Assembly (NCBI GenBank): GCA_001766825.1
Contig: LYOR01000002.1
Span: 61,810-125,809 of the forward strand
Direction of reading: 5' to 3'
Source: Candidatus Syntropharchaeum butanivorans
Lineage (GTDB): Archaea; Halobacteriota; Syntropharchaeia; Syntropharchaeales; Syntropharchaeaceae
DNA length: 64,000 bases
Both the position numbers and the translations under genes were made by a program. The notes below the pieces were generated by a model. That model was given only the letters and a program-made list of their open reading frames with translations, did no database searches and was not told where the DNA came from. Below, piece by piece: positions 1 to 12,343 of this stretch. Each line of letters starts with the position of its first letter. Position 1 is the stretch's first letter.

Positions 1-76
1 ATTATTCACTGAATGAAGTGCATGCGAAGGTCAAACGTCTTGGTGACAAACTTGCAGAGGTAGATTCACTGTCCAG

Positions 77-217
77 ATCAGGAATGGAAAAAAACAGGGG
101 TGATGGATGGGAAAGGGAGCTGGTCTCAGTGGCATTTATTATTCATGAGAGGTTATTATTCATGAGAGGGTCTGATTTAGGTTTTGACCTGGGGGAAGGG
201 GTAAAATCAAAATACTC
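77..217. repeat. Dispersed MITE-like repeat, copy A (right part; contains a 17-bp tandem duplication at 136-169)
   Basis: Shares AAAAAACAGGGGT..GTCTCAGTGGCA..TTTTGACC..GGGGTAAA..TCAAA with 54260-54635 and 62643-62850. Confidence 0.75.
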
Positions 218-241
218 AACAGATTTGATTGAGGAGGTCAT

Positions 242-376
242 CTATCTCTTCTCAAAGCACTCCTCATGGTAGAATGTGCCCCTACCATCCTTTACGTATT
301 TGATGTAGCATGCATCATGCTCAAAGATCTTGACACTCTTACCACATACCGGGCATTTAACACTCTTTCTTGCCAT
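242..376 (-). CDS. 44-aa CPxCG-type zinc-finger microprotein (MARKSVKCPVCGK...YHEECFEKR), not in ORF track
   Basis: Manually translated; ATG at 376, TAG at 242-244; CxxC plus HxxC; purine-rich upstream sequence; 30 nt after the fwdC stop on the same strand. Confidence 0.65.
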   Translation of the reverse strand: MARKSVKCPVCGKSVKIFEHDACYIKYVKDGRGTFYHEECFEKR

Positions 377-405
377 GCCCATCCCTTTATAATAAATAAA
401 AGGGG

Positions 406-1176
406 TTATCCGAGAAGAAGAACCCCTTTACCAACCCCTCTTACAGCAAGATCGCCGGTGTGCTTCCTGAAGCGCTTACCCTCAATCTCCTCCTCGCCCT
501 CGAACCTGAACCCTGGAAGCATATCGTAGACCTCTCCCTTAACGATGATCTCACCCTTTGTCATCTCACCCCCCGGCATCGTGGCAGATCCCTCGATGAT
601 GATCCTCCCTCCTGTCATCGAGAGGCCTGGAAGGATGCCGACGTTACCCTTCACAAGGATCTCACCACCTGCCATGTGCTCTCCGATATAATCCCCTGCA
701 TCTCCCTCAACCGTGATCTTACCGCCCCGCATACCGGTCATCTCCCCCCGGTACCCGGCACCAAGATAGTTACCAGCATTACCCTCTATCACGAGTTCGC
801 CACCTCTCATCTCACGCCCTGCCCATGCATCTGCATCCCCTTTCACCGTGATCTTACCGCCCCGCATCAACGCTCCACAGTGCATATCACAGCTTCCCTC
901 AATCACGATTGACCCTGCAGTCATACCTTCACCGATCCGCTTAACCCTTGTAAGATCTCCTTTCATGATAATCTCGGTTGATGCTGGATCTCCTGAGCCT
1001 TCAACGCTCACATCAAAGAAGTCCCCGAGCTTCATCTCTCTGTTACCATGATAAACTGTAAGCGACTTTATCTCCTCCTCTGATTTACCCGCAAGGCCAT
1101 CCGGGGTTATAACCTCTGCCTCGAGCGGAACGGTGATCGAGGATCGCATCGTCAGTGTGATCTTTGCCATATCCAC
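406..1176 (-). CDS. fwdC: Formylmethanofuran dehydrogenase subunit C
   Basis: VPLEAEVITPD N-terminus, GxxMxGG beta-helix repeats, operon context. Confidence 0.95.
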   Translation of the reverse strand: MDMAKITLTMRSSITVPLEAEVITPDGLAGKSEEEIKSLTVYHGNREMKLGDFFDVSVEGSGDPASTEIIMKGDLTRVKRIGEGMTAGSIVIEGSCDMHCGALMRGGKITVKGDADAWAGREMRGGELVIEGNAGNYLGAGYRGEMTGMRGGKITVEGDAGDYIGEHMAGGEILVKGNVGILPGLSMTGGRIIIEGSATMPGGEMTKGEIIVKGEVYDMLPGFRFEGEEEIEGKRFRKHTGDLAVRGVGKGVLLLG

Positions 1177-2871
1177 TCACCCCGCCCTGATCTCAAGAGG
1201 ATGTGAAAGATACTCATCCTGCACCGGGTAGTTTGCCATGCTCACCGTGTAATAGGCGTCAAATTTCGCCTCAAGATCCTTGAGCATCTCCTCTCGCATG
1301 GCATGCGCCCTCTCACCGACCGGATTGACCCAGTAAGTCCTGCCAGGAGGTGTTGCTACAATCTCTCCATCCTTAACGACTACCTCCCCGCCCTTTACCG
1401 TATAGAATGTTCGCATCAGCTTCTCCTCGATCTCTCTGTAACCCTTGGCTGGATCAAAGCTCTCAGGCATTATATCATAGATTGCAACATCGGCATCTGC
1501 ACCGACCCTGAGTGTTCCTTTGCTCTCAGAAAGCCCGAGAATCTTTGCAGGGGCAGAGCGGGTCATCGTTATGATCTCACCCCACGTAAGCTCCCGATCG
1601 ATCGTTGCAATGAGTGCGCGCCTGCCAACAGCATCACTCACCCCTTTAAGCATCTCCTCCCGCTTTGGCTTGCTCATAAGAAGTGCGATGATCTCAGGAT
1701 AGAACGTGAAAGGACAGCCGTTCGGATGATCTGTCGTGAGTACAACCTTCCATGGATCCTCTATGAGGAGAGCAAGCTCAATCCCGACGGCCCACTGGAT
1801 CGCATTGACGGGTACTTTCGGCGAATATGCAACCGGAATGATGCCAGATCCTGTCTCAAGCTCGACATCATGGTTGCTCCATTTGCGCCTTGATAGTGTG
1901 TGGAGGCTATACTCCATCGGGCCATCTGCTGTCATCGTCGTGGTGTCGCAGAACATGACAGCACCGAGATCGATCGTGATATGGTCGTTCTTATTCACGT
2001 AGTCCGCGATTGCATCGGCCTTCGACTCAAAGTCCTTCCAGCTTGACCCTCCATATGCATGGAACTGGGTGTGGGTTGCATGCATCACCTGACGATCGGA
2101 GCTTGCGGTTATATCCTTCACAGCCTCATAGGTCTCAAGTGTTGTCTCAAAGTTACCGGGATGCCCAAGATCGTTACAATGGATATGTATTGAGTGTGGA
2201 AGCTTGAGTTCCTCGTTAACCTTTGCAAGCGCCCTTATGATCTCCTTTGGTGTGACGTCAAAGTGGGGGACCGGATCGTTGATTGAGCAGTTCTTACCCC
2301 AGCCCCATGCCTCAACACCACCCGGGTTTACGATCTTTATCCCGTATGCCTTTGTCGCACCAAACATCCAGCTCACATAGGCTGCAAGCCGGTCAAGATC
2401 GCCTGCTTTAACGTATTCCATCGTCATCCAGTTGTTGTCAAGAAGCACGAGCGCTCCTTTGTCTGTTATCGGCATATCCTCAAACTCCTCGTGGGTATGA
2501 CGTGCAAGAAGCGGGGGCATCGCCGCCTCGAAGGTCGTTGTGTATCCCATCCTTGCGTATGTGTAGCCTGTTGAGAAGGTGTTAAGGATGCTGAACCCAC
2601 TGCAGGCCCTTGTGAGTCTGCCCCTGGGTGCTCTACCCTTTCTTCCATCCTCAGGCCTCATTATCCGCCCTGCATTTACCTTGCCACCCGCAATATGTGA
2701 GTGAAGCTCAACACCACCCGGTACAACCAGTCTCCCTTCTGCATCGATCACCCTTTCTGGAGATGAGACATCCTCGACGATCTTATCCCCATCTATCGAG
2801 ATATCCATCTTCTCTCCGTAGATTCCCTGAGCTGGGTCGTAAACAACCCCATTCTTTATGAGAATCCCCAT
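1177..2871 (-). CDS. fwdA: Formylmethanofuran dehydrogenase subunit A
   Basis: Amidohydrolase HSHIAGGKVN, HIHCNDLG, TTDHPNG motifs. Confidence 0.97.
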   Translation of the reverse strand: MGILIKNGVVYDPAQGIYGEKMDISIDGDKIVEDVSSPERVIDAEGRLVVPGGVELHSHIAGGKVNAGRIMRPEDGRKGRAPRGRLTRACSGFSILNTFSTGYTYARMGYTTTFEAAMPPLLARHTHEEFEDMPITDKGALVLLDNNWMTMEYVKAGDLDRLAAYVSWMFGATKAYGIKIVNPGGVEAWGWGKNCSINDPVPHFDVTPKEIIRALAKVNEELKLPHSIHIHCNDLGHPGNFETTLETYEAVKDITASSDRQVMHATHTQFHAYGGSSWKDFESKADAIADYVNKNDHITIDLGAVMFCDTTTMTADGPMEYSLHTLSRRKWSNHDVELETGSGIIPVAYSPKVPVNAIQWAVGIELALLIEDPWKVVLTTDHPNGCPFTFYPEIIALLMSKPKREEMLKGVSDAVGRRALIATIDRELTWGEIITMTRSAPAKILGLSESKGTLRVGADADVAIYDIMPESFDPAKGYREIEEKLMRTFYTVKGGEVVVKDGEIVATPPGRTYWVNPVGERAHAMREEMLKDLEAKFDAYYTVSMANYPVQDEYLSHPLEIRAG

Positions 2872-2876
2872 CTTAC

Positions 2877-4178
2877 CTACCTCCTAAGCTCTCTCACCCT
2901 CGTAAGTATCCTCTCAAGGATCTCCTCGTCTGAGAGATAATCTGTATCAACGATCTTTCTCGTTCTTATCGGAACACCATCCATACGATACGCTGTTCCT
3001 GCAACCTCAACCCCGGATATCGCAGATGGAATCACGACATCAGCAAGCTCAGTCGTGGGGTTGGGATAGGGATCTATCTGAATGAGTGGGATTTTTGCCA
3101 TATGTCTCAGAGATTCTCCCGGGAAGTGTGCCCCTGGATCTGCAGCGATCGCCATCATCGCATCAACCTCACCCCTCAGAAGCACGTCGTTTGCCGCGGT
3201 CTCACCTGGATTGTACCATGCATACCCCCTTGAGAAGTCAACCGCAAAGGGGTATCCTGTGAGCCATGCAAATGTGTGCCCGGAACCCGTGACGTTATAG
3301 TGACCCCTCATCGGCATCAACGTGAACTTCGTATGCGCGTTGAGCTCATCAACAAGGGAGATCACGTTCTCGAGGTTCTTGTACCTGCCCCTTGAATGAG
3401 TGAGCCCCATACCACCAAAGATGATCCCGAACTCACACGACTTCATCGCATCGACCATCTCGATGAGCTTTGACTTCTCAACACCCCCCACCGTGTCAGG
3501 GACCACATCCTCATGCCCTGCAAGGATCGTCCTCAGGGCTGAGAATACCATATAGTCATACCCCGGCTCAACCCTGATAAACTCATCAGCGACCTTCGCC
3601 GTCTTTGTCTCCCTTACATCCACGACGTAGACCTTTCTATCCTTCTTTCCACCAGGTCTAAAGAACCCCTTAGCAGCATGAGAGTACCTTGCCCTGTGTC
3701 TGGGGTGGGCCTCTGCAGGGTTACACCCCCAGAAAACAACAAGATCTGCCCGGTTCTTAACCTCACCGAGTGTGCACCCCGGCGACCCTTTTCCCTGAAC
3801 ACCGATGACCGTGGGGCCATGACATACAGATGCGGTGTTATCGATCAGAGCACCGATCTCCTCTGCAAGCTCAACCCCTTTCCGCTGTGCCTCACATATG
3901 AGTGATGACCACCCGTAGAGAAGTGGTCGCTTTGCATCACTGAGTATCTCAGCACTGCGCTCAATCGCCACATCGTAGCTCACCTCCCTGAGCTCCCCAC
4001 CCTCACGGACCATAGGGGCCCTTATTCTTCCATGCCCCATTATCTTGCTCTTGCCCAGAGGGCATGCCTTCTTCACATTTGTGATCCTGCCAGCTTCCAC
4101 AATGACCTCGATATCATCACACAGAGATCCACAGAGCGGACATATCACATCGGTAACGGTCTCTGTTGCCATTATCAA
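2877..4178 (-). CDS. fwdB: Formylmethanofuran dehydrogenase subunit B (Mo/W-pterin, Cys ligand)
   Basis: CPLCGSLCDD Fe-S motif, SVCHGPT, MRGHYNV. Confidence 0.97.
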   Translation of the reverse strand: MIMATETVTDVICPLCGSLCDDIEVIVEAGRITNVKKACPLGKSKIMGHGRIRAPMVREGGELREVSYDVAIERSAEILSDAKRPLLYGWSSLICEAQRKGVELAEEIGALIDNTASVCHGPTVIGVQGKGSPGCTLGEVKNRADLVVFWGCNPAEAHPRHRARYSHAAKGFFRPGGKKDRKVYVVDVRETKTAKVADEFIRVEPGYDYMVFSALRTILAGHEDVVPDTVGGVEKSKLIEMVDAMKSCEFGIIFGGMGLTHSRGRYKNLENVISLVDELNAHTKFTLMPMRGHYNVTGSGHTFAWLTGYPFAVDFSRGYAWYNPGETAANDVLLRGEVDAMMAIAADPGAHFPGESLRHMAKIPLIQIDPYPNPTTELADVVIPSAISGVEVAGTAYRMDGVPIRTRKIVDTDYLSDEEILERILTRVRELRR

Positions 4179-4555
4179 GCCTCCTTATATGATGCGATGA
4201 GTTCTTTGAGGGGCAAGACCGGTGCATCTGTCCTCTCAACCGTTGCCTCAACACCCTTAAATCCTGGTGTGCCCACACCTCCGGTATCGGTATCAACTAC
4301 AGCATTGGCCCACGGACCCATCGGGATAAAGACAAGCCCATCAGGCAGCCCATCATCCTTTGCCGCCCTCACCACCACATCTCCAAACTCAGTCTTGACC
4401 CTGACCGTATCACCCTCTGTGGCACCGATCTCGCTTAACAGGCTCTCATTCATCTCACACCGTGCCACGGCATCGAGATACTCATCGGACATCTTGTTCT
4501 CAAGGTTCTTACCCTGATCAATCGTCCTTCCGGTTATCAGGATTACCTTTCTCAC
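4175..4555 (-). CDS. fwdD: Formylmethanofuran dehydrogenase subunit D
   Basis: LITGRTIDQG, FIPMGPWAN, GTPGFKG. Confidence 0.95.
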   Translation of the reverse strand: MRKVILITGRTIDQGKNLENKMSDEYLDAVARCEMNESLLSEIGATEGDTVRVKTEFGDVVVRAAKDDGLPDGLVFIPMGPWANAVVDTDTGGVGTPGFKGVEATVERTDAPVLPLKELIASYKEA

Positions 4556-4656
4556 ACCAATCCCTCACATCCCTGAAGACGGATCATTACATTCAATCCA
4601 CACTGTGGGTTATTAAAGGTATCCGTTTATTCAAATAAATGGTTGGTTGGTTCAGC

Positions 4657-5328
4657 ATGCGGGCAAGATTTGAGAGGCGGTTTGGACCTGTACTTGAGGC
4701 TGCAAGAGAGGGGGAGCGCCGGTGTCTCAGGTGCGAGAGGTGGGGTGGAGACCCGGTTCTGATGGTCGTTGATGCGGCACTTGACTCTATCGGGCTCAGC
4801 TACTTCAATATCGTTGTCCCCAGGGTCAGGCGGTTCTATGAGGTGTATGTGAGGGATGGAAGGATCAGATCCTTTGAGGATCTTGCAGGATACAGGCCTG
4901 ATGATAGAGGACTTCTTGAGATACTCAACAACCGGCGTGCATGGGGCACGGCGATTCAGGTTGCAGATACACTCGAGAGGATGCGGAGAGAAAGGGGGCT
5001 TCGATCTGATCTTGATGCACTCTGTAACTGGGCACATAACACGAGCTACCTTGAGTGGAGAAACGACCCTGTAGGGCAGATTAAAGGAGTCGGGCTCATC
5101 ACATTCCAGTACCTCAGGATGCAGGCCGGTGTTGATACCTCGATGCCTGATAAGATCATAAAGCGGGTCGTTGAGCGTGAGTTTGGAGTAAGGGCACCGG
5201 ATGACCTCTCCTTTATCAGGGAGATGGAAGAGCTATCGCGTAGAATCGGATATTCGCAGATCCTGATATGCTGGGCGATATGGCTCAGAGAGTCTGATAT
5301 GGGGAGAGGAGAGTGGGAGATTGTTTAG
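4657..5328 (+). CDS. Helix-hairpin-helix (HhH-GPD-like) protein, possible DNA glycosylase-fold protein
   Basis: QIKGVGLITFQYLRMQAGVDTSMPD resembles the HhH motif plus conserved Asp. Confidence 0.55.
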   Translation: MRARFERRFGPVLEAAREGERRCLRCERWGGDPVLMVVDAALDSIGLSYFNIVVPRVRRFYEVYVRDGRIRSFEDLAGYRPDDRGLLEILNNRRAWGTAIQVADTLERMRRERGLRSDLDALCNWAHNTSYLEWRNDPVGQIKGVGLITFQYLRMQAGVDTSMPDKIIKRVVEREFGVRAPDDLSFIREMEELSRRIGYSQILICWAIWLRESDMGRGEWEIV

Positions 5329-5334
5329 TTTGTA

Positions 5335-5928
5335 TTATGATGGGAGAAAAACACTTTTAATGCCAATTATGATCATTTCGGTCCCGATTGCAGCAAGAAT
5401 TATCCCCATGATCTTTGTGATGTAGACCGATCCTTCCTTCTTTATTATCTCATAGAAGAGATCTGCGTTCACAAGGATTGCCCCCACCCCGAGCATTGCT
5501 ATTAAAATCGCGGCGATAACATGCACCCGCTCAACGAGCGTGGCTGCAGCACTCATGAAGATCATCACCGATGTGATCGTCCCGGGACCTGATAAAAGTG
5601 GTATCGCCATCGGGACAACCGCTATCCCCTCCCATTCCTCGGGTTCAACCTCCGGCCTCGGGATCCCGAGAAGCATCTGTAGCGCGATAATAAGAAGGAG
5701 GATTCCACCTGCAATCCTGAAGGATGAGATCGAGATCCCAAGAAGATCCAGTATCCCCTCCCCGATCAGTCCAAAGACGATCAGTGTTATCGTGGCAACA
5801 AAAACCGCCTTGATTATGATTTTTCTCCTTGTTGCCCTGTCCAACCCCTCTGTGAGCGCGAGAAAAATTGGAAGATTGCCAAACGGGTCGGCAATCACAA
5901 ATACTGCAACGAGTGCGTGGAAAAACAT
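5335..5928 (-). CDS. MarC family membrane protein
   Basis: DPFGNLPIF, FRIAGGILL, VPMAIPLLSGPG. Confidence 0.92.
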   Translation of the reverse strand: MFFHALVAVFVIADPFGNLPIFLALTEGLDRATRRKIIIKAVFVATITLIVFGLIGEGILDLLGISISSFRIAGGILLLIIALQMLLGIPRPEVEPEEWEGIAVVPMAIPLLSGPGTITSVMIFMSAAATLVERVHVIAAILIAMLGVGAILVNADLFYEIIKKEGSVYITKIMGIILAAIGTEMIIIGIKSVFLPS

Positions 5929-5932
5929 TAGA

Positions 5933-6157
5933 TTAGCAGATCAGGCTCAACGCACCGGGTTTACAGTGCTCAATGCAGATCCCACAACCTGTGCACAGGA
6001 CCTGATAGGTTGGCGCAAGATACCACTCATCGCATATCTCTCCTCGCCTGCGATTCTCCGGATATGATCTGAAGACCGCCTGCGGGCATCTTCTAAGGCA
6101 TTCACCACACCTCAGAGCGCCGATGCACTTCTCCTTATCAAAGCGTATCTCAACCAT
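5933..6157 (-). CDS. 2[4Fe-4S] ferredoxin
   Basis: CIGALRCGECLRRCP and CTGCGICIEHC; start at MVEIRF. Confidence 0.85.
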   Translation of the reverse strand: MVEIRFDKEKCIGALRCGECLRRCPQAVFRSYPENRRRGEICDEWYLAPTYQVLCTGCGICIEHCKPGALSLIC

Positions 6158-6158
6158 C

Positions 6159-7013
6159 TCACTCCCACCTCCCACTGCCCGGGACTTTAATCGGTTCAAA
6201 CCACTCATCTTTAAGCTCCGGGATACTCTGTCTCTCACGCATACTTATCGCACCTCTATCACAGACCGCCCGGCATACCCCGCATCCATAGCACTTCCAC
6301 ATATCAATGTACGCCTTTCCAATTACAGGATCAAACTTTATCGCCCCAAACTGACACCTTGAGACACACTCCCCGCACCCATCACACTTAGCTGTGTCTA
6401 TCACCCCGACATACTCTCCCTTGTGGAGCATGTACCCGAAGTCAAGTGCCTGTCTGAGCGCCAGGCATACGGGGGTTGCACACTGGCAGACAGCAGCGAT
6501 GTAAGGGGTCTTGAATGTCCATACGGTATGAACAAGCCCCTCCCTGTCCCTCCTCACAACCTCATCGATTGCCTCATCCACGGTGAGTGGCTCAACCCCT
6601 GTGGGTGTAAAGTCTGGCCAATCCCGGATATAGTCAAGAAGCATCCCGAAGAGGAGGCAGTACTTCTCTCCCCCGGTCTCAGCACGAAGCACGCGCCTGC
6701 AGAGGCACTCAACCTTCGCAATGGGGGATGCGATCTTCATGATCTCCTTCGTCTCCTCGATCGTCACAGGCTGTCCCTGATGCCAGTAGATATACCACTC
6801 ACGAAGCTCTCTGCTTCGATCCATCCATGACTCACTCTTGAAGGGGGTGAGTGCCTCAAGAATCCTGTATGCACCATCCTTCTCAACCGTTGCTGCAAAG
6901 TTTCTGACAAACTCCTCCCGTTCCTTATCGTTCTTCACCATCTCATCGACGTAGTTCTTCGTGTTCAGATACCACCGCTTACCTGCCCCATGCTCAGCGC
7001 AAAACTTACACAT
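6159..7013 (-). CDS. Fe-S protein with Cys-rich core and C-terminal 2[4Fe-4S] domain
   Basis: MCKFC, CLCRR, CQCATPVC, CDGCGECVSRC, CYGCGVCRAVC. Confidence 0.85.
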   Translation of the reverse strand: MCKFCAEHGAGKRWYLNTKNYVDEMVKNDKEREEFVRNFAATVEKDGAYRILEALTPFKSESWMDRSRELREWYIYWHQGQPVTIEETKEIMKIASPIAKVECLCRRVLRAETGGEKYCLLFGMLLDYIRDWPDFTPTGVEPLTVDEAIDEVVRRDREGLVHTVWTFKTPYIAAVCQCATPVCLALRQALDFGYMLHKGEYVGVIDTAKCDGCGECVSRCQFGAIKFDPVIGKAYIDMWKCYGCGVCRAVCDRGAISMRERQSIPELKDEWFEPIKVPGSGRWE

Positions 7014-7055
7014 AAAAGCCACCTTCAAAAAAGAGATGGAGGCCCGAGAATGGAC

Positions 7056-8129
7056 CTACTTCATCCTTCCATATTTCTCCGTCGCCTTTATCATCGCCTC
7101 GATGTTTGCCCCGGGTGTCTTCACGAAGAAGTCACATCCGGGTGATACGACGTCGATCTTCGCCTCCTCAATTATCCTCTTCACCCATGCATCGATCTTA
7201 TCCTCACTGCCTTTACGCTTCAGGAGTGTCATCGTTGGGAGGTTTCCGGCAAGAGCAACCCCGGTCCCTGCAGCATCAAAGTCTGCTCTCGCCTTCACAG
7301 CATCGGTCTTCTCATCGATCACGACCATCTTCGCCCCGACCTCTGCGCAGTCCTTCATGATTGGACCTGCGGTTCCAGACATTGTGAGAATCTCTGCCGG
7401 TGATTTCTCGAAGATCTCGGTGATGAAGCCCTTGAAGAGATTTACAAAGTCGTTCGGTGAGACATTGTCACAGCACACCCCATCCTCCCTGAAGGTAACG
7501 TAGTCTGCCCCTGCCTCCTTATAGATCTTGGCAAGCTCAATTGGCAGATTGATCACGGCCTGATAGAACTCCTTCACCTTATCAGGGTCTGTTCTCACCA
7601 TCATCATGAACTGGACCGTATCCATGACATACCCGATCAGCGTCGTGAATGGCCCCATCGTATAGGCGAATATCGGAACCTCACCATAGTACTTCTCATG
7701 CAGAATCTCAAGGGCTTTGGTGATTACAGGAATCCTGCCTGCATTTGCAAGATCCTCCGGAATCTTGAGATCTTCCGGCTCCTTGATCTCAATACCATCC
7801 TTTGTGAAGCCAGGCCTCAGAACGCCGGGCCAGAGGATCTTCCCCTTTTTTATCTGTTTATCCCTGAAATCAACAGCCATCCCAAGTATCTCTGCCTCAA
7901 CAACCGCATCAAACGGGACAACCACACTCTCAAGCCCGTACTTCTCATGAGCCGCAGCACCGAGCCTTGCCATCTTCTCTGGTTCGCGATGAGCCTCTGG
8001 CCACATCGCATCGAACTCAGTCATCAGCTCCTCTGTGTATGTTCCAACCCCCGGGCAGGCACAGGGTATCTTATCGATCTCCCCCTTCTTGCCCTCCAGA
8101 ATCAGCCTCATCCTCTCGTATGAGTTCAT
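7056..8129 (-). CDS. MtaA/CmuA (URO-D superfamily) methyltransferase-like protein
   Basis: VPFDAVVEAEILG, GRIPVITKAL, GPFT, LAGNL, SPGC; lacks the HxC Zn motif. Confidence 0.85.
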   Translation of the reverse strand: MNSYERMRLILEGKKGEIDKIPCACPGVGTYTEELMTEFDAMWPEAHREPEKMARLGAAAHEKYGLESVVVPFDAVVEAEILGMAVDFRDKQIKKGKILWPGVLRPGFTKDGIEIKEPEDLKIPEDLANAGRIPVITKALEILHEKYYGEVPIFAYTMGPFTTLIGYVMDTVQFMMMVRTDPDKVKEFYQAVINLPIELAKIYKEAGADYVTFREDGVCCDNVSPNDFVNLFKGFITEIFEKSPAEILTMSGTAGPIMKDCAEVGAKMVVIDEKTDAVKARADFDAAGTGVALAGNLPTMTLLKRKGSEDKIDAWVKRIIEEAKIDVVSPGCDFFVKTPGANIEAMIKATEKYGRMK

Positions 8130-8346
8130 CTTATCACACCTTCATCCATTCTCGTCAGATTACTTGGTGATAATCTCCACTGTTGTTTATAAGGATTTGG
8201 GTTTTTTTTATCCATCCATCTCAGGGTACTGGTTCTCTCCTTTTCTCACCCCGGATATGCGACCGGAGCGACCGGACCTGAGTTTACTCCGGCAAAGGAT
8301 ATATAGCATGGAGAAGAAAGAGAAAGGATAGGGAGGTGGGTACGTT

Positions 8347-8520
8347 TTGATACCAGATCCTAAGAAGATCAGGAAGGAGGCGCTGAAGGATATAATCCCT
8401 GTGAAGGATCAGCTTACACAGATCTTTGAGGGAGAGAGGGAGATTGAGGATCTGCTGAAGGAGGCTGTTTACAAGGCTGGGAGGGATAAGAGGATAAAGA
8501 AGGAGGATAGGGTTCGTTGA
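8347..8520 (+). CDS. 57-aa charged helical protein (MIPDPKKIRKEALKDII...), not in ORF track
   Basis: TTG start after GGAGGTG RBS (8332-8338); ATATATA TATA-like box near 8299-8305; open to TGA 8518-8520. Confidence 0.5.
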   Translation: MIPDPKKIRKEALKDIIPVKDQLTQIFEGEREIEDLLKEAVYKAGRDKRIKKEDRVR

Positions 8521-9698
8521 TGCCTTGTGGCATCGAACACCTTAAGCTCATGCCCCCAGAATCTTTGTGGCGTTTTTATTCGTGACGTGGCAGCATTAAG
8601 CGCATCAGCAGGATCTGTGAAAAGTGCAGGTTTCCCTCTTAAGGCTTCTCTCACACCCTCACGGATCACCCAGGCACCAAGTGGTGCCCAGTACGATGGA
8701 TAGATCTCCCTGATTACAACAGCTGTTGCCTGCCGTCTTCTTGCCTCAAGCTGCTCTAAAACCCCGAGTCTTGCTGCATAGTACCCCCCACCAAGGGGGG
8801 AATACCCCCCTCTTCTACCTTTATACCACTCACGATCTGCCTCAATGGCGCCCCTCTCTGCCCAGACTGAGTGGGGCATCCAGATCTCCAGAAGCTCAAA
8901 GGCATAGATTGCAGGTATCAGGATGATCTCGAAGTGGTTCTCAAAGTACGTGTGTGAGTACAGCTCAACATCACTTATCTCTGGATAATCCCTGACTCTC
9001 TCAATGAGCCTCCTCCCAATGATATCATCAGTTGCTGTTATTGACCACCTCGTTGGAACGAGTCTCCTCTTCTCACCGAGAAGTCCCACCGAAAAAAGTC
9101 GCATGATCTGGTAAACGGAGATTCCTGCGCGATAGAGCTCATCCACAGCAAGAGCTGCCTTAAGATCTGTATCTGATGTGATGTACTCGACCTTCGGATC
9201 GACCCGGGGGTTGGCCGTTATTCTGACCTTCTCGATTGAACCCGCAGGTCCCATCGGCATGAGAATGCCATCAAACCTGAGATCAAGCCTGGGTGGCTTT
9301 GAGAACCAGACTTCGGTCTCAACAGGCTCCCGTGCGCGAGCAAGCTCCTGTGTGATCGAGATGATCCTGGAGCCTGGACGGGATCTTGCATCCTTCACAT
9401 TAACACCTGCCGATGAGCGCACAAGGGTTGATCTCACCCCTATCACATCCTCGATCGTGAGTCCGCCCCAGCAGGTGGGATCCTCGAGACGAGAGGCGTC
9501 CAGCTCTCCTGTTGCGGGCACAAGAGGCCCTGTTCTCACCACAGGATACCCCTTTCTTCCAACAAAGACTGAGGGGGGAGAGAGTCCAAATACTGAGTCT
9601 TTTATCGGGGGAATCCTCTCAAAAACCCTTAATCTCTCGAGAATAGGACAGCTAAGCCTTCCACAGAGGCCCTTTCCCTTGCATATCGTGCACCTCAT
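8469..9698 (-). CDS. nreA: Nre family DNA repair protein
   Basis: CxxCKGKGLCG..CP N-terminus, RRLVPTRWSITATDD, C-terminal PIP box QRTLSSFF. Confidence 0.92.
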   Translation of the reverse strand: MRCTICKGKGLCGRLSCPILERLRVFERIPPIKDSVFGLSPPSVFVGRKGYPVVRTGPLVPATGELDASRLEDPTCWGGLTIEDVIGVRSTLVRSSAGVNVKDARSRPGSRIISITQELARAREPVETEVWFSKPPRLDLRFDGILMPMGPAGSIEKVRITANPRVDPKVEYITSDTDLKAALAVDELYRAGISVYQIMRLFSVGLLGEKRRLVPTRWSITATDDIIGRRLIERVRDYPEISDVELYSHTYFENHFEIILIPAIYAFELLEIWMPHSVWAERGAIEADREWYKGRRGGYSPLGGGYYAARLGVLEQLEARRRQATAVVIREIYPSYWAPLGAWVIREGVREALRGKPALFTDPADALNAATSRIKTPQRFWGHELKVFDATRHQRTLSSFFILLSLPAL

Positions 9699-9885
9699 CC
9701 AAGCTCATGATATGTATGGAATCCCGTTGAATAAACTTTATCCACACCCCCTCGTGGTGTGAGCAAGATGGTCAAAAATCTACAGCAACCTCGCATGAGT
9801 TGATGCCATCCTCCAGCAGATTAACAAGATACAATCGAGAGGAACCTTTAAGTAGTTTGCAAGTTAACCGATAGACATTTAGAGG

Positions 9886-10515
9886 ATGATAAATATGAAT
9901 GTTGGACAGGAATTGCTGAATGTTCCATTTGGCGAGATGATAAAGGAGATGGCGCTGGCTATCGCAGAGGGCCAGCAGGCACTGGATATGAACTCGATTG
10001 AGGTTGCACAGGCGCTTGCCGAGATCGAGCTACCGGCTGGTAGCGTTATTCTTGCGATCGAGCAACCTGTTGATGAGGATGGAAATCCCACCGGGTCGCC
10101 CACGCTTGTGACAAATGATCAACCGATGAACCTCTTGACGTATGGACTCCAGCCGCGATTTTATGAGTTCACAGAGTCGATCATCGAGGTTAAGATGACA
10201 ATATCGATGAAAATTGAGCGATCAATCGAGAAGGAGTACAAGAAGGAGTTCAAGTTCAAGAATAAAACCACGTTTGAGAGCAGTTTTAAATCGAGTGGCC
10301 TGGCAAGTTTCTTATTTGGAAAGGCTTCCGCCAAGCTCAAGTCAGAGACCACTGTTGCATATGCTTCAACCTATAATGCAAAGTACAAATCCAAGTACAC
10401 GTTCTCTGAGACAGGAACGAGCCTGCTCAGGACGACCTTGAGGCCAGTGCCTCCACCAGATCGGGCTGTGCCGACGATCAAGATACAGGAAGCTTCAGGT
10501 TCGTCCACTCCTTAA
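9886..10515 (+). CDS. Uncharacterised DUF2589-like protein with long Ser/Thr/Lys-rich beta-hairpin
   Basis: VPFGEMIKEMALAIAEGQQALD helix; paralogous to the next ORF; family call from memory only. Confidence 0.6.
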   Translation: MINMNVGQELLNVPFGEMIKEMALAIAEGQQALDMNSIEVAQALAEIELPAGSVILAIEQPVDEDGNPTGSPTLVTNDQPMNLLTYGLQPRFYEFTESIIEVKMTISMKIERSIEKEYKKEFKFKNKTTFESSFKSSGLASFLFGKASAKLKSETTVAYASTYNAKYKSKYTFSETGTSLLRTTLRPVPPPDRAVPTIKIQEASGSSTP

Positions 10516-10518
10516 TTC

Positions 10519-10526
10519 TTTTTTTT
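10519..10526 (+). terminator. T8 tract immediately after first cassette gene (possible internal terminator)
   Basis: TAA then TTC then T8 before the GAGGAG RBS of the next gene; archaeal terminators are oligo-T. Confidence 0.45.
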
Positions 10527-10548
10527 ACATCCCTGAGGAGTGGAGTTT

Positions 10549-10965
10549 ATGGTAGATAAGGACGAGAAGAAGGTGATCGTTGAGGCGCTTGTAGCTCCAC
10601 TTGCCAGCATCCTCAGGTCTGTTGGGATTGCGCTTGCAGAGGCACAGCATGCACTTGATGAGAACTCGATCGCAACACAGAAGGCGATCGATCTTGCAGT
10701 TAAGAGCGGTGAGCTTGAGTACTATATAGAGGCGCCATGGTACCACTTTCCAGAGGTGAATCTCGAACTCAAGATGGCACTCTCAATGAGGGCAGAGGCA
10801 GAGGTTGATAGAAAAGGGAGGGTGCGAGGATACAGGCCAATTCTAATCTCAGCACCGATAAATGCGGCTTACAAGAACACCTATGACTATGATGTCAGAG
10901 GTTCAAGCCAGATAACGGCAAAGATCGTCTCTATACCGCCTGCATCAAAGATTAAGGGAGAATGA
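10549..10965 (+). CDS. Uncharacterised DUF2589-like protein, short paralog
   Basis: PLASILRSVGIALAEAQHALDENS, PWYHFPEVNLELKMALSM, GSSQITAKIVSIPP. Confidence 0.6.
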   Translation: MVDKDEKKVIVEALVAPLASILRSVGIALAEAQHALDENSIATQKAIDLAVKSGELEYYIEAPWYHFPEVNLELKMALSMRAEAEVDRKGRVRGYRPILISAPINAAYKNTYDYDVRGSSQITAKIVSIPPASKIKGE

Positions 10966-10966
10966 T

Positions 10967-11848
10967 GTGGTTGAGATGGCAGAGGACTACAGAAAGAAAT
11001 ATGAGCAGCTTCTCAGGGATTTTACCGCAAAAGAAGCAGAGATTGGTGAGCTTAGATCCCAGGTAAAGAGGCTTCAACTTGAGCGTCCGAAGATCCCGCC
11101 AGATCGCCTCGTTTCAACCTTTGTAGATGCGCTTGAGAAGATGCAGGTTGCACTATCAGAGAAGCGCACGCGTGTTAAGTATCTTGTCAGTGATATGGAG
11201 GTTGAGCTGAAGGCAAATGTGGCATTCAACGAGGATAAGAATGAGATAGCCTATCAGCTTCCAAAGCTTGATGATACCCTGCCCCCTGAGAACCTGAGCA
11301 CGATCCGTTTCAGGATAAAGATGCTCCCAGGAGATGAGGAAGTATCCGGTGAAGAGGTCTTTGGTTATGACGAGGTCCCGAACCTCATAGGTCTCACACT
11401 CGATGCAGCGAAGCATCAGATAACATCGAGGAATTTCACGGTTGGTGAAATCAGCTACAGAAGAAATGACCAGGTTGAACCGGGCACTGTTCTCTCCCAG
11501 ATCCCATCTCCATTCTCGCTCGCACCCCCGGAAAGTCCTGTTGACATAACGGTTTCAGAGCCCGCTGTAAAGCTGACAGAGGTTCCGGATCTCATCGGAG
11601 TCCCACTCGATGATGCAGAAAAACTCTTAAAATCAGTTAATCTGGAAAAAGGCAGGGTGACAGAAGAAAGGAGTGAATCACCCCCCGGGACCGTGATAAG
11701 CCAGAGCATCGAGGCCGGTAAAGAGGTTGAGGCTGGATCTGCGATCGATCTTGTGGTCGCGGCAAAAAGAAGAAGGAATATCTCTCGATACAGGAGGCCC
11801 CAGATATATCCAAGGCGGATCAGCAGGGATCTGAAAGTTGTAAAATGA
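10967..11848 (+). CDS. Coiled coil + helix/beta-hairpin module + 2 PASTA domains
   Basis: VPNLIGLTLDAA..GTVLSQIP and VPDLIGVPLDDA..GTVISQSI PASTA repeats; N-terminal heptads; no TM or signal peptide. Confidence 0.85.
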   Translation: MVEMAEDYRKKYEQLLRDFTAKEAEIGELRSQVKRLQLERPKIPPDRLVSTFVDALEKMQVALSEKRTRVKYLVSDMEVELKANVAFNEDKNEIAYQLPKLDDTLPPENLSTIRFRIKMLPGDEEVSGEEVFGYDEVPNLIGLTLDAAKHQITSRNFTVGEISYRRNDQVEPGTVLSQIPSPFSLAPPESPVDITVSEPAVKLTEVPDLIGVPLDDAEKLLKSVNLEKGRVTEERSESPPGTVISQSIEAGKEVEAGSAIDLVVAAKRRRNISRYRRPQIYPRRISRDLKVVK

Positions 11849-12102
11849 GCCTTGAAACATGTATCGTCTGGCTGAATGAGCCTCTCACAACAAAAAAGGT
11901 TGAGGTATTCACACGAGCAGTGGTTGACCGCGGCGGCAGAATCGAACTTACAGCAACCAGAGGCGCATTCATCATAAGCATCGATCACACCTTCATCGAC
12001 GAGCTCAGAGCAATGCCGGGTGTGAAGCTCATCGGTGGCGTTGAGATACGCCCCCGGAAAGTCCCCATCATCAAGAAACCTCTCCGTGCGGGAGAATCCT
12101 GA
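11845..12102 (+). CDS. 85-aa ferredoxin-fold-like protein (peptidase inhibitor I9/propeptide-like)
   Basis: CIVWL..GGRI..GAFIISI..IDELRAMPGVKLI pattern; ATGA overlap with upstream gene. Confidence 0.5.
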   Translation: MSLETCIVWLNEPLTTKKVEVFTRAVVDRGGRIELTATRGAFIISIDHTFIDELRAMPGVKLIGGVEIRPRKVPIIKKPLRAGES

Positions 12103-12117
12103 AGAATCAAGGGAGTA

Positions 12118-12189
12118 AGCCAAGGTCCGGATTCGAACCGGAGTGGAGTCGCTCTGCAGGCGACCGCATAGCCTCTCTGCCACCTTGGC
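12118..12189 (-). tRNA. tRNA-Cys(GCA)
   Basis: GCCAAGG acceptor stem, GTCGC-CTGCAGA-GCGAC anticodon arm, GGTTCGAATCC T-loop, U73, no encoded CCA. Confidence 0.97.
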
Positions 12190-12343
12190 CTCCAGCGCCT
12201 GCCACCACCTTTACCTTTCACAGGGGATATATAAGAGTCTTTCTGAGCCTCGGTGGAGGCACTGATACGGCGTCATCCCCAAACCTTTTTATTCTCCTCC
12301 CTGAGATAGATATATACCTCACGTTCTTGAAGGTGGATGAGAC

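Follow-up and report, generated by a model that had tools for sequence, protein, structure and literature searches.

What might be built by four linked genes of which one encodes PASTA repeats and another a protein folded like a protease propeptide? The question arises from a cassette in a 64,000-nt window of Candidatus Syntropharchaeum butanivorans, which an earlier note, made from the letters alone, had described as three paralogous helix/β-hairpin subunits with an I9-like partner. PASTA domains in peptidoglycan-free archaea, together with an I9-fold protein that has no protease, make this a rare case. The host of the cassette is a butane-oxidising archaeon.

Gene layout of the cassette

The four genes are co-directional, and their tight linkage, as first described, was confirmed by a 1-nt gap at one junction (TGA-t-GTG) and an ATGA overlap at a second. 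For ORF1 and ORF2 the likeliest starts are the ATG codons at 9895 and 10549, which we favour because each is preceded by a GAGG-type ribosome-binding site and yields a protein matching the length of its homologs (206 and 138 aa; Table 1). The TATA-like element upstream of ORF1 is a possible promoter box, and the operon structure is likewise a prediction from the sequence; a scan for sigma-70 promoters and terminators was uninformative because the host is an archaeon. In agreement with the earlier note, none of the four proteins has a signal-peptide-like N-terminus; transmembrane segments were found in 0/4, the top 19-residue Kyte-Doolittle mean being 1.87 in the N-terminal helix of ORF2.

Table 1 Features of the cassette (positions in the window)
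Feature	Positions	Strand	Description
Possible archaeal TATA box (TTTAAGTA)	9847..9854	+	Read from sequence; ORF1 ATG 41 nt downstream
ORF1	9895..10515	+	206 aa; 209 aa with alternative ATG at 9886
ORF1-specific extra β-hairpin	10246..10371	+	Residues ~118-159, GLASFLFG tip; gap in ORF1/ORF2 alignment
ORF2	10549..10965	+	138 aa, minimal ORF1 paralog; 141 aa with alternative GTG at 10540
ORF3	10967..11848	+	293 aa: coiled coil, Trypco2-like module, acidic linker, two PASTA domains, basic tail
ORF3 N-terminal coiled coil	10979..11086	+	Residues ~5-40; from homolog alignment, length very variable
ORF3 helix-plus-strand module, Trypco2/Pepco-like	11090..11326	+	Residues 42-120, hhalign
PASTA domain 1	11372..11566	+	Residues ~136-200, Pfam PF03793
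PASTA domain 2	11579..11761	+	Residues 205-265, best Pfam stretch
ORF3 Arg/Lys-rich C-terminal tail	11768..11845	+	Homologs keep basic character, not sequence
ORF4	11845..12102	+	85 aa, I9-type fold, then conserved basic tail

ORF1 and ORF2 are paralogs remotely related to DUF2589

The motif-by-motif alignment of ORF1 and ORF2 reported earlier was reproduced by BLASTP (E = 3e-10), which spans the three motif blocks paired there, and by comparison of the family profiles (hhalign, 99.6% probability, E = 6e-24). Judged by sequence, the two are true paralogs. ORF1 begins with an invariant N-terminal ELLNVPF motif, followed by a long helix, a small hairpin, long β strands up to PVPPP and a Ser/Thr/Pro tail, and is 54–81% identical among archaeal and bacterial homologs. 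Both proteins end in charged, Pro-rich tails beyond the last strand. The extra hairpin of ORF1, missing from ORF2, abounds in Lys, Ser, Thr and aromatic residues in an alternating pattern; AF2 places its strands at residues 118–132 and 145–159 (pLDDT below 50). The full ORF1 model, computed from a 28-sequence alignment, shows a helix and two ~20-residue hairpins at low confidence (pLDDT 50.5), and Foldseek returned no significant match to this low-confidence model (best E = 0.07, TM <0.2).

The suggested kinship with DUF2589 (PF11655) proved right as a remote homology: against DUF2589 members, hhalign aligned ORF1 over 128 columns (92.2%, E = 5.9e-7), and a separate run gave 92.7% and 80%, with ORF2 at 80% (E = 1.4e-5). 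Intermediate relatives in three further loci (L134–L136) match a DUF2589 HMM at E = 5e-5. The Pfam DUF2589 model (cut-off 23 bits) matched neither ORF1/2 nor 39 of their relatives at E ≤ 1, and a search of the host's own proteins with it gave no match at E ≤ 10. Since they are missed by this model, we regard ORF1/2 and their relatives as a sister family of DUF2589. The superfamily to which ORF1 and ORF2 belong is large, comprising 1353 clusters at 50% identity; the DUF2589 literature consists of transcriptome mentions only, the family being uncharacterised.

Other searches returned little. Pfam, NCBIfam, PHROGs and PADLOC yielded no match for ORF1, ORF2 or ORF4, a Pfam scan of the 39 ORF1/2 relatives one by one gave scattered noise only, and searches of PDB sequences with ORF1, ORF2, ORF1+2 and DUF2589 profiles found nothing meaningful. 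An aerolysin-like homology, for which the earlier note had suggested a search, was not recovered at a significant level, either by sequence (PDB) or by fold (Foldseek).

ORF3 combines a Trypco2-like module with PASTA repeats

The PASTA assignment of ORF3 is secure: PF03793 detects two repeats (E = 4.6e-28; 97.4 bits against a cut-off of 23.2), and the NCBIfam model PknB_PASTA_kin matches residues 135–269. ORF3 orthologs carry anywhere between 0 and 12 or more repeats. Such domains usually lie outside the cytoplasm and, to our knowledge, peptidoglycan is their only known ligand class; the hosts of ORF3 orthologs include archaea without peptidoglycan. At the other end of the protein, the matches from a Pfam scan of ORF3 N-termini were dominated by coiled-coil families.

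The identity of the module in between required a correction. The earlier note had seen in it the same layout as in ORF1 and ORF2. This likeness is visible, and profile comparison does align the strands that had been paired, but paralogy is weak (E = 0.006 and 0.0018; probability 6–15%), and BLASTP of ORF3 against ORF1 and ORF2 found nothing. Of the three subunits called paralogous, ORF1 and ORF2 are so, whereas the ORF3 module (E = 0.002 against ORF1/2) is better described as Trypco2/Pepco-like. The lead to Trypco proved sound as remote homology: hhalign matched the module with Trypco2 at 87% (E = 4e-6) over 75 columns, which make up the entire Trypco2 domain, and an independent run gave 74.9% (E = 2.6e-5), compared with E = 0.02–0.44 in control comparisons. 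The Pfam Trypco2 model had no match in ORF3 at E ≤ 1, and profile comparison of Trypco2 with ORF1/2 and with DUF2589 found nothing. Trypco1 was discarded as a relative, as it showed no relation to ORF1, ORF2 or ORF3. The apparent link between cassette and Pepco is a remote homology carried by ORF3 only (87%). In each of ORF1–3, the strongest amphipathic strand is of a common E-V-x-L-K-M type and lies right after the helix; the N-terminal helices show no more than moderate amphipathicity, which counts against a pore.

ORF4 has a propeptide fold with no protease nearby

For ORF4, the I9-like assignment stands at the level of fold. Its AF2 model (pLDDT 85.7) retrieved from the PDB, with Foldseek, a top 16 made up entirely of pro-subtilisin or propeptide chains (probability 1.00, E ~1e-3, TM 0.70–0.77, rmsd 2–3 Å; 1spb_P, 2z58_B, 1scj_B). 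The fold is β-α-β-β-α-β, with a conserved basic tail of the form GGV.xRxRxV..I.K. Profile searches of the PDB gave weak matches to propeptide chains (E = 0.095–1.7, best 1scj_B at 0.095), the Pfam I9 model (PF05922) did not match ORF4, and 39 ORF4 relatives yielded scattered noise only. Peptidase_S8 was not found in the own genome (79% complete), nor a protease of any class in the cassette or among its nearest neighbours at 29 diverse loci. In relatives, a GT4 glycosyltransferase is either fused to an ORF4-like domain or encoded next to it, and one such unfused neighbour passes the Pfam 'GT4-conflict' cut-off.

Conservation, neighbourhood and mobility

The expected co-occurrence was found, with the four genes together in about 80 loci of archaea and bacteria. 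ORF1- and ORF2-type genes are present in 86/86 sources, ORF3 in 78/86 and ORF4 in 76/86, arranged as 1-2-3-4 or in the circular permutation 4-1-2-3, with translational coupling. No other recurrent neighbour was found: across the 29 diverse loci the nearest neighbours are mostly housekeeping genes, and Mokosh, MADS, PD-Lambda-2 or type I RM genes lie near the cassette in single loci only. With PADLOC-DB v2, ORF1, ORF2 and ORF4 had no match and no known defence component was detected in or beside the cassette; ORF3 matched through its PASTA repeats, and only to the PASTA part of PD-T4-6 kinase models.

In two congeners the cassette DNA is 91% identical, while the flanking genes are 72–75% identical and non-syntenic, and the tree reveals transfer of the cassette between archaea and bacteria. 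It is a self-contained, patchy, horizontally transferred module. Within the Methanosarcinaceae, the cassette occupies one fixed site adjoining the rpl3 operon in two genera, which suggests a cassette kept for a cellular role rather than a defence gene with rapid turnover and thus speaks against a pore effector. A viral origin was considered and rejected, as IMG/VR contigs contained no relative of the cassette.

Related loci distribute the same parts differently. In related bacterial cassettes, PASTA is joined directly to an ORF1/2-type module and the coiled-coil/Trypco2-like part is a separate protein. Modules of the superfamily are fused to or adjoin PASTA, Laminin_G_3 lectin, GH5 cellulase-like and Amidase_2+SH3 proteins that have no signal peptides, and in relatives there are also fusions to DUF4332, a helix-hairpin-helix domain. 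At one compared locus (L110), a true Trypco2 gene adjoins a subtilase-TPR protein.

Proposed mechanism and alternatives

Pepco, that is Trypco1/2 (PF19493/PF19631), is a protease-activated β-barrel pore effector of Avs-type defence. It is a stand-alone protein of ~117 aa with an amphipathic helix and strands, which forms SDS-stable 9–10-mer β-barrel pores that permeabilise membranes; the pores are unlocked once the charged, Pro-rich C-terminal tail is removed by a serine or cysteine protease encoded alongside (Evans et al. 2025, bioRxiv 10.1101/2025.11.14.688446). Because the cassette proteins appear distantly related to this pore-forming defence protein, a membrane-perforating assembly seems probable.

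Building on the homologies, domain architecture, co-occurrence and mobility of the cassette, we infer how it might assemble, act on the membrane, be triggered and employ ORF4. Our main reading, to which we assign a probability of roughly 40%, is a hetero-oligomeric, membrane-active, β-rich assembly that bears PASTA arms, includes an I9-fold adaptor and serves as a latent pore effector or export device. ORF1 and ORF2, each with an N-terminal helix and then long amphipathic β strands, would co-assemble into a ring or barrel; ORF3 would attach by way of its Trypco2/Pepco-like module, oligomerise through the coiled coil and project its PASTA rods and basic tail to bind an envelope or membrane ligand; and ORF4 could dock on the assembly as adaptor, cap or inhibitor. 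The output would be a controlled perforation of the cytoplasmic membrane, the likeliest role being that of a latent conflict effector of the abortive-infection type, Pepco-like though with no dedicated protease. The amphipathic strand type common to ORF1–3, the charged, Pro-rich tails of ORF1 and ORF2, the low-confidence helix-and-hairpin model of ORF1 and the reshuffling of the parts in related cassettes speak for this reading. Several further observations count against it: PASTA is usually extracytoplasmic, yet 0/4 proteins carry an export signal; a protease, a sensor NTPase and known defence components are absent in and beside the cassette; the kinship with Pepco is remote and confined to ORF3; and the ORF1 model is poor.

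That extracytoplasmic-type domains (PASTA, lectin, cellulase-like, amidase) are fused to or lie beside superfamily modules without signal peptides could instead point to a non-lethal export or surface-display device, which we consider rather unlikely. ORF1 and ORF2 would form a conduit, holin- or type-10-secretion-like, that takes envelope-binding proteins lacking a leader, here the PASTA rods of ORF3, across the membrane, with ORF4 as the cargo-docking adaptor. The variable, spacer- or rod-like PASTA copy number, the adaptor-like fusion of the ORF4-like domain to an enzyme (GT4) and the stable position in Methanosarcinaceae all agree with such a device, but DUF2589 proteins offer no experimental precedent, the cassette described here contains no enzyme cargo, peptidoglycan, the sole PASTA ligand class known to us, is missing from many host archaea, and Pepco, the one relative that has been characterised, kills by forming a pore and does not serve as a conduit.

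Decidedly unlikely is a scaffold or other structural assembly that stays in the cytoplasm and does not act on the membrane, such as a polymer associated with nucleic acid or with a glycan of the cytoplasm. It would fit the lack of export signals and transmembrane segments in all four proteins, the basic tails of ORF3 and ORF4, the DUF4332 fusions, the ribosomal-protein operon beside the cassette in Methanosarcinaceae, and the very high conservation of ORF1 (54–81% between domains), which resembles that of self-assembling structural proteins. Against this, homology leads to a pore-former, the associated domains (PASTA, lectin, cellulase, amidase) are extracellular in type, and patchy distribution and recent transfer speak against a core structural role. 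Least probable, with a small chance at best, is the model of the earlier note taken literally, a single aerolysin-like hetero-oligomeric barrel or filament made of three equivalent paralogs. In its favour, ORF2 and the module of ORF3 share their strand order (E = 0.0018) and the non-significant Foldseek matches of the ORF1 model are mostly long-hairpin pore formers (lysenin, aerolysin), yet the module matches Trypco2 ~500-fold better than ORF2, and a joint ORF1/2 profile misses ORF3 in the genome.

On a bolder reading, the cassette would be a protease-independent perforation or translocation machine common to archaea and bacteria, composed of DUF2589-like and Pepco-like subunits, with which envelope-binding proteins that lack a leader (PASTA rods, lectins, wall hydrolases) could pass through or break open the cytoplasmic membrane. 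This reading is speculative and on balance unlikely; if true, it would constitute a new class of protein export or lysis system and give the large DUF2589 superfamily a function for the first time. Neither the ORF1/2 superfamily nor DUF2589 has an assigned function, and by tying the former to Pepco via gene neighbourhood and remote homology, the cassette provides a concrete, testable functional hypothesis. As its carriers include genetically tractable Methanosarcina and Methanolobus species, its function is directly testable.

Comparison with known systems

Like PknB-type kinases and class B PBPs, ORF3 has clear PASTA repeats, two in number, but it comes with no kinase, PBP, transmembrane segment or signal peptide. 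ORF4 has its fold in common with the subtilisin propeptide (I9, PF05922), and its extended C-terminal tail can be likened to the part of a propeptide that occupies the cleft of the protease; in contrast to I9 propeptides, it is neither attached to nor beside a subtilase. ORF1 and ORF2 match DUF2589 in N-terminal motif, helix, hairpin and strand order, and like the DUF2589 clusters, e.g. Archaeoglobus fulgidus AF0414–AF0417, they are tandem paralogs in a small autonomous cassette; the coiled-coil/Trypco2-like/PASTA partner and the I9-fold partner are specific to the cassette type described here. With Pepco, the ORF3 module shares small size, a non-enzymatic nature, an amphipathic helix, amphipathic strands and a charged linker or tail. 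Whereas Pepco is a free protein, the ORF3 module is flanked by a coiled coil and PASTA repeats, and in the cassette it is accompanied by a pair of DUF2589-like paralogs and by an I9-fold partner.

Gene organization of the cassette

ORF calling placed four co-directional ORFs within positions 9886-12102 of the window. GAGG-type sites 8-9 nt ahead of both ATG 9895 and ATG 10549, together with homolog lengths of 206 and 138 aa, indicate that ORF1 and ORF2 probably start at these codons. The tight linkage and the absence of signal peptides described in the earlier note were both confirmed: a single base separates the ORF2 TGA from the ORF3 GTG start, the ORF3 TGA and ORF4 ATG overlap as ATGA, and transmembrane segments and signal-like N-termini are absent from all four proteins. 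The cassette is followed, 15 nt past the ORF4 stop, by a convergent tRNA-Cys(GCA) gene. In two congeners this tRNA, the nre-like gene and purF are far apart or on separate contigs, so the cassette may occupy a hot spot of rearrangement or integration; no integrase was observed.

Coordinates and composition of the cassette and related features
Feature	Source	Position	Strand	Description
ORF1	window	9895-10515	+
ORF2	window	10549-10965	+
ORF3	window	10967-11848	+
ORF4	window	11845-12102	+
tRNA-Cys(GCA)	window	12117-12190	-
Giant ORF3-type protein	L021, Methanosarcina	1405-5493
Giant ORF3-type protein	L026, Methanosarcina	929-5509
Congener cassette contig	L137 (G139:C88)	1-3835		3.8 kb
Partial ORF1 match	G333:C1	899675-899827
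Partial ORF1 match	G198:C1	3307041-3307265
Partial ORF1 match	G164:C85	112-291
Variant gene 1	L134-L136			DUF4332(HhH)-module-PASTA
Variant gene 2	L134-L136			283-aa ORF3N-like protein (E 2e-18; Trypco2 HMM E 6e-4)
Variant gene 3	L134-L136			200-aa ORF1/2-type protein (DUF2589 HMM E 5e-5)
Variant gene 4	L134-L136			second ORF1/2-type protein
Divergent cassette	L082, Acidobacteriota	4175-12033		GT4 glycosyltransferase (above Pfam GT4-conflict cut-off), ORF4-like, ORF1-like, 755-aa protein without assignment, 799-aa protein with GH5 cellulase domain, ORF1-like, ORF2-like
Trypco2 gene	L110, archaeon of the host's phylum	1243-3150	-	two tandem Trypco2-like halves

Remote matches of the four proteins to known families

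The three motif blocks from which the earlier note had proposed the paralogy of ORF1 and ORF2 were recovered by BLASTP (E 3e-10), and the two family profiles aligned at 99.6% (E 6e-24); the two proteins are paralogs. The Pfam DUF2589 model (PF11655) matched neither protein nor 39 relatives. Profile alignment with DUF2589 proteins gathered from the host's phylum, which are likewise arranged as tandem pairs, gave the remote match that the note had suggested looking for, both for ORF1 (92.2-92.7%, E 4-6e-7, 128 columns) and for ORF2 (80%). In the ORF1 alignment, the ELxxxP motif at the N-terminus, helix, small hairpin and PLL...I.I.E.xIxF strand all keep register. Among 1.84 billion representatives, the ORF1/2 profile found 1353 clusters (50% identity; 904 at E<=1e-10), whose members span 105-611 aa with large variable inserts and include DUF4332(HhH)-module-PASTA and module-Laminin_G_3 fusions. 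The AF2 model of ORF1 was poor (pLDDT 50.5); it predicts a helix at residues 12-43 and, besides a small hairpin, four long strands at 95-182. Foldseek returned nothing significant for it (best E 0.07), and the listed structures, mostly long-hairpin barrel formers, only reflect the model geometry.

ORF3 consists of a coiled coil, a conserved ~80-residue module and, as predicted, two PASTA domains (PF03793, E 4.6e-28). Its proposed status as a third paralog is weakly supported: BLASTP against ORF1 and ORF2 was blank, and a joint ORF1/2 profile run over the genome retrieved those two alone. Comparing the ORF2 profile with that of the ORF3 N-terminal family (ORF3N) reproduced the claimed strand pairing, but at E values of just 0.006 and 0.0018. 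Against Trypco2 (PF19631; nine reference proteins), the note having also named Trypco as a candidate, residues 42-120 span the entire domain in a remote profile match (87%, E 4e-6), and an independent ORF3N alignment gave 74.9% (E 2.6e-5). Control comparisons of ORF3N with ORF1, ORF2, DUF2589, Trypco1 and ORF4 gave E 0.02-0.44, while the acknowledged Trypco2/Trypco1 pair scores just 20.8% (E 1e-3). Some Methanosarcina genomes encode, directly upstream of ORF1, a second ORF3-type protein of giant size (1362-1526 aa), in which a coiled coil of ~240-330 aa and at least 12 PASTA repeats accompany the same Trypco2-like module (ORF3N HMM, E ~1e-48).

For ORF4, AF2 gave a confident beta-alpha-beta-beta-alpha-beta domain (pLDDT 85.7). 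The suspected likeness to I9, the subtilisin-propeptide fold, was upheld at fold level, since each of the top 16 Foldseek PDB matches was a subtilisin propeptide or a pro-subtilisin (E ~1e-3, probability 1.00, TM 0.70-0.77). These chains were also the best PDB matches of the family profile (E 0.095-1.7). The Pfam I9 model did not match ORF4, and the host genome, 79% complete, yielded no subtilase.

Distribution and transfer of the cassette

ORF1 has 466 relatives, all unnamed, in a set of 5.8 billion proteins, and occurs in 255 of 185,579 species (one genome per species). The best 80 loci kept include archaea (Methanosarcinales, ANME-2, GoM-Arc1/Argoarchaeum, Archaeoglobaceae, Bathyarchaeia, Halobacteria, Methanocalculus) and bacteria (Aquificota, Acetobacteraceae relatives, Acidimicrobiia, Bacteroidota, Thermodesulfobacteriota). 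Across 85 fetched loci and the window, ORF1-type and ORF2-type genes were present in every source, ORF3-type in 78 and ORF4-type in 76, the shortfall being mostly due to contig ends cutting the locus; ORF1-4 co-occur in both domains, which is what the neighbourhood survey proposed in the note was to check. Most archaea have the genes in the order 1-2-3-4; bacteria and Methanocalculus have the circular permutation 4-1-2-3. No other conserved gene surrounds the cassette except in Methanosarcinaceae, where it sits immediately upstream of rpl3-rpl4 in 21 loci (Methanosarcina, Methanolobus). In 29 diverse loci, the genes closest to the cassette share no family and include no protease; defence genes account for a few of them (type I RM in L003; Mokosh, MADS and PD-Lambda-2-like matches). 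No cassette relative was found on viral contigs.

The cassette was found in 33 of 401 genomes sampled from the phylum and, for one family, in 18 of 52. One congener (G032) is without it, and in another (G139) the cassette DNA is 91% identical to the window copy, against 72-75% for the flanking nre-like and purF genes, which are located elsewhere; this is sequence evidence of recent transfer. The G139 assembly ends on either side of the cassette, where flanking repeats or strain heterogeneity may have broken it. In the ORF1 tree, the window clusters with GoM-Arc1, Argoarchaeum and ANME-2, and Methanocalculus is nested with Syntrophaceae bacteria (support 100/100). A contig labelled uncultured Leptospirales (L037) probably reflects mis-binning and not a copy in a bacterium, since its ORF1 is tree-identical to Methanosarcina and its gene order is that of Methanosarcina. 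Partial ORF1 matches in genomes of one genus, from the family richest in the cassette, look like decayed remnants.

Variant cassettes

Halanaerobiales-like bacteria (L134-L136) have four component genes in succession, followed by one unassigned protein and then TPR proteins. Directly ahead lies an Amidase_2+SH3_3 wall hydrolase in L136 and a BlaR/MecR1-type pair in L135. PASTA is swapped between module types among these recurring components, which ties the ORF1/2-type and Trypco2-like modules functionally, not by proven ancestry. A divergent type (L082-L085) has an ORF4-like domain after a GT4 glycosyltransferase or fused to its C-terminus, together with a GH5 cellulase-domain protein; ORF3-type proteins in L083-L085 are without PASTA.

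Candidate functions and comparison with Pepco

Pepco (Trypco1/2), the sole characterised relative of the cassette proteins, has ~117 aa, with an amphipathic helix at its base and strands; it pre-assembles into SDS-stable 9-10-mer beta-barrels and becomes a lethal pore once an adjacent protease cuts off its charged, Pro-rich C-terminal tail (bioRxiv 10.1101/2025.11.14.688446). The cassette proteins share the helix-then-strand layout: a common strand of E-V-x-L-K-M type that follows the helix is the most amphipathic one in each of ORF1-3, a Pro motif and a charged or Ser/Thr/Pro tail close both ORF1 and ORF2, and an acidic linker follows the ORF3 module; ORF1 has an additional Lys/Ser/Thr/aromatic hairpin. 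From this common layout we infer a hetero-oligomeric, membrane-active assembly, in which the ORF3 coiled coil would mediate oligomerisation, a ligand of the envelope or membrane would be bound by the PASTA rods and basic tail of ORF3, and ORF4 would serve for docking, capping or inhibition.

Such an assembly could be a latent suicide or conflict pore, a candidate favoured by the Pepco homology, the mobility of the cassette and its GT4-conflict association. It could also be a conduit that exports or displays leaderless envelope-binding proteins, consistent with extracytoplasmic-type domains without signal peptides, the amidase neighbour in L136 and the stable locus in Methanosarcinaceae. A cytoplasmic scaffold is a further candidate, given the absent export signals, basic tails and HhH fusions.

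We found no description of the cassette in the literature, where DUF2589 appears in two transcriptome tables only. The L110 gene encodes a genuine Trypco2 protein next to a subtilisin-like protease that carries fused TPR repeats, a textbook Pepco-protease pair, in contrast to the protease-less cassette, which lacks the linkage that defines Pepco and by Pfam thresholds falls outside Pepco, DUF2589 and I9. The best description of the cassette is that of a new variant within a superfamily of small DUF2589/Pepco-like modules built of a helix plus strands, with the ORF1/ORF2 pair, the coiled-coil/Trypco2-like/PASTA protein and the I9-fold partner as its hallmarks.
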